Assembly: GCF_041886205.1 (NCBI RefSeq)
Contig: NZ_CP169029.1
Length of the DNA stretch: 64,000 nucleotides
From: Escherichia coli
Lineage (GTDB): Bacteria; Pseudomonadota; Gammaproteobacteria; Enterobacterales; Enterobacteriaceae
Reading direction: 5' to 3' (one strand)
The notes beneath the pieces are model-generated. The model was given only the letters and a program-made list of their open reading frames with translations, did not search any database and was not told where the DNA came from. Below are positions 39,203 through 39,483 of the stretch, piece by piece. The position numbers and the translations under genes are program-made. Position 1 is the stretch's first letter. Each line of letters opens with the position of its first letter.

Positions 39203-39208
39203 GCACTT

Positions 39209-39392
39209 GCCGGATGCGGCGCGAACGCCTTATCCGGTCTACCGATCCGGCACCAATGTAGGCCTGATAAGACGCGACAGCGTCGCATCAGGCATCGGGC
39301 ACCGATTGCCGGATGCGGCGTAAACGCCTTATCCGGCCTACGGTTCGGACTATTTGTAGGCACGATAAGACGCGACAGCGTCGCATCGGGCA
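39209..39392. repeat. BIME (cluster of at least four REP units) downstream of fadA
   Basis: alternating GCCGGATGCGGCG..CCTTATCCGG and GCCTGATAAGACGCGACAGCGTCGCATC units. Confidence 0.85.
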
Positions 39393-39452
39393 TGGTTTGC
39401 CAGATACGTCATAGATCTAAATGCCACTGAATAACAGTTTAGTTGCCGTTCT

Positions 39453-39477
39453 TCCCGCCTGTCAGGGGCGGGTTTTT
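39453..39477 (+). terminator. rho-independent terminator (CCCGCCTGTCAGGGGCGGG + TTTTTT), probably ending the fadBA transcript
   Basis: GC-rich hairpin followed by six T on the plus strand. Confidence 0.6.
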
Positions 39478-39483
39478 TATATC

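Follow-up and report, generated by a model that had tools for sequence, protein, structure and literature searches.

The window analyzed in this study is a 64,000-nt stretch of the Escherichia coli genome (NCBI RefSeq assembly GCF_041886205.1, contig NZ_CP169029.1). Gene calls were taken from the annotation of E. coli strain 6EVA, whose sequence is 100% identical over 39100-39600. That annotation places fadA on the plus strand and fre on the minus strand, so that the two genes converge on a common spacer, as the original prediction held. The spacer comprises 39203..39483 and is 281 nt long. It contains an array of REP elements followed by the sequence of a small RNA, FadZ, and the features of the region are collected in Table 1. 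Neither the BIME nor FadZ is among the features that RefSeq lists here.

Table 1. Features identified in and around the fadA-fre spacer, in window coordinates.
Feature	Position	Strand	Basis or remarks
fadA CDS (387 aa)	38039..39202	+	TAA stop at 39200-39202; ORF list and strain 6EVA annotation
fre-sense Rho termination region, approximate	38900..39000, centre ~38956	-	K-12 position transferred by its offset from the fadA stop
REP Y#1	39208..39242	-	GTAG end on the minus strand; 2 mismatches; hairpin -19.6 kcal/mol (plus-strand RNA)
REP Z2#1	39258..39294	+	1 mismatch; hairpin -21.9 kcal/mol
Y-linker-Z2 central unit, fre sense	39261..39338	-	Rfam naRNA4 (RF02564), 91 bits against a gathering score of 59.5
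REP Y#2	39307..39341	-	GTAG end on the minus strand; 1 mismatch; hairpin -21.3 kcal/mol
REP Z2#2	39356..39392	+	More degenerate, 4 mismatches; hairpin -16.3 kcal/mol
Truncated, decayed fifth Y half (TGCCAGATACGTCATA)	39398..39413	-	12/16 bases match; in register with Y#2, 77% identity
AU-rich single-stranded stretch UGAAUAACAG	39428..39437	+	K-12 RNase E sites; likely processing point that releases FadZ
FadZ (STnc790) sRNA, ~41 nt	39438..39478	+	Published probe, K-12 Term-seq 3' end, conservation
FadZ seed, single-stranded, UUUAGUUGCCGUUCUU	39438-39453	+	
FadZ hairpin	39454-39472	+	
FadZ U6 tail	39473-39478	+	
fre CDS	39484..40185	-	Stop codon 5 nt from the end of the FadZ U-tract; ORF list and 6EVA annotation
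ubiD	40231-41724	-	6EVA annotation

The fadA 3'UTR is predicted to fold at -135 kcal/mol on the plus strand (z = -7.4 against shuffles) and at -124 kcal/mol on the minus strand (z = -6.2), and is therefore far more structured than shuffled sequence. Open reading frames also span the REPs (plus strand, 39138-39323; minus strand, 39199-39393), and we attribute them to the repeats themselves.

REPs were located with an edit-distance scan that used Y, Z1 and Z2 consensus sequences. The scan identified exactly four full REPs in the spacer, in the order Y, Z2, Y, Z2 (39208..39392), and no match to Z1. The original prediction of at least four REP units at 39209..39392 is correct, since the four full REPs are accompanied by a truncated fifth Y, and the range given was right to one base. 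Orientations alternate (-, +, -, +) and the GTAG is present in 4/4 REPs. The first Y and the first Z2 are joined head to head by a 15-nt linker, CGATCCGGCACCAAT (linker type a), the first Z2 and the second Y tail to tail by 12 nt, and the second Y and the second Z2 head to head by a 14-nt linker, GGTTCGGACTATTT (linker type b). The period of the Y-Z2 pair is 98-99 nt, and the stem of the first Y starts 6 nt past the fadA stop codon. On both strands every REP is predicted to form a hairpin, with energies between -16 and -22 kcal/mol. With a degenerate REP pattern, 100 shuffles of the window gave an expectation of 0.00 matches.

BIME-2 elements consist of Y and Z2 REPs in inverse orientation and occur as tandem copies whose number differs among strains, while BIME-1 elements consist of Y and Z1 with a long L linker that often contains an IHF site (Ton-Hoang 2012, PMC3333891). 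The repeat in the fadA-fre spacer is a BIME-2 comprising two Y-Z2 pairs and a truncated Y. All of the sequence features of that class were found: REPs of the Y and Z2 rather than the Z1 type, alternation of orientation with a GTAG foot, linkers of 12-15 nt, tandem pairs, an extragenic position, and a tandem number that varies among strains. Nothing essential distinguishes it from other E. coli BIME-2 elements; it has 2 pairs, where K-12 has 3 and most strains have 1, and it carries a truncated Y at its right edge. None of the features of BIME-1 was found. BIME-1, RIB and RIP elements also consist of a pair of inverted REPs located where transcription units end, but they are single-copy combinations of Y and Z1 with a long L linker bearing the IHF site. 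Identity with BIME-1 or an IHF-binding RIB was ruled out by the absence of Z1, of a long linker and of the IHF core motif WATCAANNNNTTR, which had 0 matches in the spacer and whose sole match in the window is at 51092. The suggestion that the array could bind IHF is not upheld, as the IHF site belongs to the long L linker of BIME-1 and the linkers here are 12-15 nt.

The Y/Z2 typing is backed by two independent checks, a match to the Rfam family naRNA4 and the published listing of the K-12 ortholog as a BIME-2. The ortholog appears as a 280-bp BIME-2, 'fadA>-<fre', in Table DS3 of Sutormin 2019 (PMC6379681). In the same work, gyrase cleaved it at 3 sites under oxolinic acid and at 1 under rifampicin plus ciprofloxacin, whereas neither ciprofloxacin nor microcin by itself gave any site (Sutormin 2019, PMC6379681). 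The sites mapped in this orthologous BIME-2 support the earlier proposal that the BIME could bind gyrase.

The naRNA4 match is on the fre-sense strand (Table 1), while the plus-strand equivalents reach only ~31 bits. The Rfam model is in effect the Y-l-Z2 unit of a BIME-2, that of REP325. REP325, in the yjdM-yjdN spacer, resembles the fadA-fre repeat in being a tandem BIME-2 array transcribed in the 3' region of a neighboring gene, and both are tied to partly Rho-dependent termination. It differs in having six pairs between tandem genes, whereas fadA-fre has two pairs between convergent genes. naRNA4, which the fadA-fre unit resembles in sequence, has been proposed as an HU-binding nucleoid RNA, and its role in nucleoid condensation is disputed in a 2026 preprint.

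The distal part of the spacer ends in a terminator. A plus-strand stem at 39454-39472, with 7 pairs (6 of them G-C) and the loop GTCAG, is followed by T6 at 39473-39478. This hairpin was the top match of the terminator scan and folds at -13.9 kcal/mol. The original prediction had placed a strong plus-strand terminator at 39453..39477, about 250 nt past the fadA stop, which agrees well with the hairpin and T6 found at 39454..39478 and with a start 252 nt after the stop. The GC-rich hairpin and U-tract of an intrinsic terminator are thus present in the window, and a 3' end within the tract has been mapped in K-12 only.

This terminator is the body and 3' end of a published sRNA, FadZ (STnc790), which was absent from the original prediction. 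FadZ lies in the fadA 3'UTR of K-12, with a 3' end at 4027232 and an estimated 5' end at 4027272; no TSS is recorded for it in E. coli, and its expression is lost in an hfq deletion strain (Bar et al. 2021, PMC8175672). The northern probe published for fadZ corresponds, in reverse complement, to 39441-39463 of the window (Bar et al. 2021, PMC8175672). RNase E sites have been mapped just upstream of FadZ at K-12 4027277-79 and 4027282-85 (Bar et al. 2021 Supplementary Table 6, PMC8175672). When coordinates are transferred from the K-12 sequence, the sites in the window are 39428-39431 and 39434-39436. With RN|WUU taken to be the RNase E cut motif, as we assume, the exact cut would fall after 39437.

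FadZ is ~40 nt long in both Salmonella and E. coli (Liu et al. 2023, PMC10703908). In Salmonella, dRNA-seq initially led to the classification of STnc790 as a primary transcript. FadZ of that organism is lost in an rne-ts strain, and mutation of three conserved U's at the 5' end likewise abolishes it (Liu et al. 2023, PMC10703908). Salmonella FadZ requires Hfq; FadR represses it, CRP activates it and fatty acids induce it. Its targets for repression are ompD, ompC, ompN and ompS, with which it pairs in the 5' coding region, as confirmed with compensatory mutations (Liu et al. 2023, PMC10703908).

The spacer shares with the published FadZ/STnc790 the same locus, the same terminator and the same AU-rich RNase E region, and its FadZ is identical to that of K-12 save T6 for T7. 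Over the 61 nt that flank the Term-seq 3' end of K-12, this one T is the sole difference from the window (T7 in K-12, T6 here). The U-tract is T6 in the window and some other strains and T7 in K-12 and others, a length polymorphism of the Hfq-binding tail. E. coli differs from the published description in that its precursor 3'UTR bears a polymorphic BIME-2. The 3'UTR from which FadZ derives is given as 196 nt in Salmonella versus 276 nt here, counted through the last U of the tract. In Liu et al. 2023 (PMC10703908) there is no mention of REP, BIME or 'repetitive' sequence in the FadZ precursor.

Duplex prediction between FadZ and ompC gave a best site at +80 of the CDS, which is consistent with the published site in the 5' CDS but not significant against shuffles (p ~0.1). 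Predictions for three E. coli RIL-seq partners likewise did no better than shuffled seeds, with p = 0.56 (dctA), 0.18 (kgtP) and 0.19 (sucA). There is no Rfam family for FadZ. An Rfam 'anti-hemB' match at 39416-39480 was rejected as noise (17 bits, E = 0.34).

Transcript ends were all taken from published maps of K-12, which has 6 REPs at this locus, or of Salmonella. In MG1655, Term-seq maps a fadA-sense 3' end to the 6th T of the U-tract, which is K-12 4027235 (minus strand); it was seen in LB at OD 2.0 and in M63, and not in LB at OD 0.4 (Adams 2021, PMC7815308). No curated 3' end in these data lies inside the K-12 BIME on either strand. The counts of the two strands are not comparable in this data set, the minus-strand scale being far above the plus-strand scale (lowest values ~23,000 versus ~800). 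Since the fadA-sense 3' end lies in the U-tract and FadZ is cut from fadBA RNA, the fadBA transcript crosses the BIME. The original prediction proposed that the fadBA mRNA carries the BIME in its 3'UTR, and named Term-seq as the check and an end before 39209 as the contrary outcome. The K-12 end lies in the U-tract instead, and the proposal is very probably right. It is further supported by the dependence of FadZ on RNase E, by its coregulation with fadBA through FadR and CRP, and by the lack of a TSS of its own. A minor 3' end or TSS inside the BIME could escape Term-seq or TSS mapping, as REP reads map to many places.

An alternative origin of the RNA at the terminator would be a promoter of its own within or downstream of the BIME, in which case the fadBA mRNA need not cross the BIME and could stop at the REPs. 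Maps of TSSs are unreliable within repeats, and the 3' end was detected in M63 glucose, where fadBA expression is low. We nevertheless consider such a promoter very unlikely. FadZ disappears both in the rne-ts strain and upon mutation of the U's at the cleavage site, and it tracks the FadR, CRP and fatty-acid control of fadBA. The E. coli records show a cluster of RNase E sites and no TSS, there is no plus-strand promoter-like site in 38000-40400, and no fadA-sense 3' end has been curated inside the BIME. The spacer is most likely a composite fadBA 3'UTR with two unrelated parts, a BIME-2 and then FadZ with its Rho-independent terminator.

The minus strand was examined for the end of the fre transcript. 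On this strand the hairpin folds at -11.8 kcal/mol and is followed by AAGAACGG, which is no U-tract, and the terminator scan detected no terminator-like site between the fre stop and fadA. A promoter-like site on the minus strand, 39465 to 39436, was rejected as being at chance level (1 found versus 1.3 expected). In K-12 a Rho termination region classified as 'antisense fadA' peaks at 4027855 (+), with a score of 10.3 and p = 7e-27 (Adams 2021 Supplementary file 2, PMC7815308). Coverage upstream/downstream of this position was 152/20 without bicyclomycin and 179/243 with it (Adams 2021, PMC7815308). The region lies ~250 nt inside the 3' end of fadA, antisense to it, and its resolution is coarse since the method uses 800-nt windows. 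Expression of fre exceeded that of fadA in one RNA-seq data set (baseMean 4307 vs 273). Judging from K-12, ubiD-fre transcripts would continue across the FadZ complement and all of the BIME until Rho stops them within fadA. Because fre-sense transcripts would cross the whole BIME, the repeat would be transcribed in both directions, a point missed in the original prediction.

These data bear on the possibility that the hairpin is mainly a terminator for fre, or a bidirectional terminator shared by the two convergent genes. The hairpin is only 5-11 nt from the fre stop, its minus strand also folds, and many convergent pairs share such terminators, with 78 REPs within them (2026 preprint). The absence of a U-tract on the minus strand argues against a role in fre termination, as does the absence of a curated fre-sense 3' end at the hairpin. 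In K-12, moreover, fre-sense transcription is terminated by Rho ~600 nt further on, and in species with a gene other than fre downstream the block is still found next to fadA. A fre or shared terminator is highly improbable in our view.

Conservation was examined among the matches listed for a degenerate fadA C-terminus pattern, which extend far outside the Enterobacteriaceae and do not include Salmonella, Klebsiella or E. fergusonii. Among those matches, the block aGTTTAGTTGCCGTTCTTCCCGCCTGTCAGGGGCGGGTTTTTT that follows fadA is near-invariant across ~13 enterobacterial genera/species. Its carriers are E. albertii, three Citrobacter, six Enterobacter, Superficieibacter, Pluralibacter, Shimwellia and Serratia oryzae, and the block TTTAGTTGCCGTTCTTCCCGCCTGTCAGGGGCGGGTTTTT shows 0-3 changes in the same carriers. 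By comparison, over the final 180 nt of fadA those species agree with E. coli at only 53-86% of third codon positions. The FadZ block accompanies fadA even though fre is not downstream in E. cloacae, C. werkmanii, C. youngae, Pluralibacter and Superficieibacter. Upstream of the FadZ seed the sequence is not alignable among genera, and the stretch from the fadA stop to FadZ is hypervariable. Conservation of the loop and of a ~17-nt flank exceeds by far what a terminator needs and is explained by the published sRNA. Within the species, the unique part of the spacer (FadZ) is present as a single copy in 5425/5426 complete E. coli genomes. Outside it, Pseudescherichia vulneris has a fadA-fre spacer of ~55 nt without the FadZ block, so FadZ seems lost there. 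Pantoea species lack the seed and have a diverged hairpin.

In other genera, unrelated repeats or nearly nothing (16-36 nt) occupy the slot that separates the fadA stop from FadZ. In C. werkmanii, C. youngae and Pluralibacter gergoviae the slot contains a ~125-nt element with GAGCGAATCCCCGGGAGCATAGATAACTATGTGACCGGGGTGAGC instead of REPs. This element resembles an ERIC/IRU repeat. Related pieces were found in Citrobacter FP75, an unclassified Proteobacteria MAG and Serratia grimesii. As the ~125-nt element replaces the REPs in those species, this 3'UTR slot has received repeats of different families, and FadZ has remained invariant throughout.

Strain variation within E. coli was assessed by aligning seven fadA-fre alleles, which contain 2, 4 or 6 REPs. 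Two even-step samples of the 5470 matching records gave frequencies of ~63% for 2 REPs, ~27% for 4 and ~10% for 6. The K-12 ortholog has six REPs in a 380-nt spacer, and spacer length ranges from 183 to 380 nt over the E. coli alleles compared. The order of the head-to-head linkers is a, b, ab (the window), ba, bb or abb (K-12), where b includes GGTTCGGACTATTT-like linkers. The left junction, with a REP stem 6 nt after the TAA, is fixed in all seven alleles, and the right junction at the truncated Y is fixed in all E. coli and E. albertii alleles examined. The exact allele of the window, at >=99% identity, was found in only 7 records. In E. coli APEC E19019 (NZ_CP126937.1), which has the rarer b-then-a linker order, the annotation gives fadA as a pseudogene with a frameshift.

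That the REP number varies freely between 2, 4 and 6 speaks against strong selection on the BIME. The array may be a neutral selfish passenger, spread by a REP-associated transposase or by recombination, with no meaningful effect on fadBA, FadZ or fre. This is a serious rival to any functional role for the array, and we judge it a real possibility although somewhat short of probable. Besides the free variation in copy number (~63%, 27% and 10%) and in linker order, it is favored by the other genera that combine an invariant FadZ with unrelated repeats or 16-36 nt in the slot, and by the finding that terminal REPs have no genome-wide effect on half-life (2026 preprint). It is harder to reconcile with the fact that 0 of the sampled E. 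coli alleles lack the BIME and with cleavage of the K-12 copy by gyrase. The left junction is fixed 6 nt past the stop, within the distance (<16 nt from a stop) at which REPs were reported to stall terminating ribosomes (Liang 2015, as cited in a later paper). REP325, too, has measurable local effects on its own operon. Convergent gene pairs with a REP have been found to be more highly expressed (2026 preprint).

A working model for the composite 3'UTR can be proposed. Transcription of fadBA, repressed by FadR and activated by CRP, would cross fadA and the BIME and stop at the FadZ terminator, as suggested by the 3' end mapped in K-12 (Adams 2021, PMC7815308) and by the FadR and CRP dependence observed in Salmonella (Liu et al. 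2023, PMC10703908). RNase E would then cut in the AU-rich stretch at ~39428-39437 and free FadZ, to judge from sites mapped in K-12 and a dependence demonstrated in Salmonella. Together with Hfq, FadZ would base-pair within the 5' part of porin coding sequences (ompC, and ompD in Salmonella) and bring about the published repression. As DNA, the BIME-2 would be a gyrase cleavage site, as shown for the K-12 ortholog. It is a member of the dispersed REP/BIME family of E. coli and occupies a permissive slot between the fadA stop and the ancestral transcript end, and its number of Y-Z2 pairs (1, 2 or 3) varies among strains in the manner typical of BIME-2.

The array may also act on the RNA. The first hairpin may impede termination of FadA translation, since it starts only 6 nt past the stop codon. 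After the RNase E cut the fadBA mRNA would end ~40 nt past the four REP hairpins, which could then act as a barrier to 3' exonucleases. The original prediction, too, suggested that the BIME could stabilize the transcript; a 2026 preprint reports no general difference in half-life for genes with terminal REPs. REPs between malE and malF reportedly stabilize the upstream mRNA (Newbury et al. 1987; Khemici and Carpousis 2004). In both cases transcribed REP hairpins past a CDS could block 3'-to-5' exonucleases, but the effect is experimental for malEFG, whereas at fadA-fre we infer a protective role, and the fadA-fre REPs would be near-terminal only once RNase E removes FadZ. The BIME may in addition attenuate transcription in either direction.

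A more specific and, on balance, unlikely idea is that the strain-variable BIME-2 serves as a dial in the FadZ precursor. Through partial Rho-dependent attenuation or as an exonuclease barrier, it might set the yield of FadZ per fadBA transcript and the survival of the fadBA mRNA after the cut. The abundant fre read-through RNA is perfectly complementary to FadZ and, as part of the same idea, could titrate FadZ or trigger its cleavage. If the fre RNA does titrate FadZ, ubiD-fre expression would be linked to porin control.

The essentials of the locus are already published, as the BIME-2 has been tabulated and FadZ characterized. The useful outcome is a corrected annotation of the fadA-fre spacer, since anyone who takes its distal part for a mere terminator would overlook an RNA that regulates porin synthesis and is linked to fatty-acid catabolism. 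A single aspect is new: the FadZ precursor of E. coli contains a BIME-2 of polymorphic copy number and overlaps a convergent, Rho-terminated transcript. The polymorphic array in the precursor and the overlapping transcript make the locus a convenient natural test case for the effects of REPs on the biogenesis of 3'UTR-derived sRNAs. REP/BIME elements are among the commonest E. coli intergenic features between convergent genes and occur in ~30% of convergent spacers (2026 preprint). Elsewhere in the window, further elements of this family were noted: a single Y at 3528-3562, a Z2+Y pair that is another BIME at 13397-13480, a Z1-like unit at 16920-16949, a Z2-like unit at 26083-26119 and a degenerate Y at 58605-58639.
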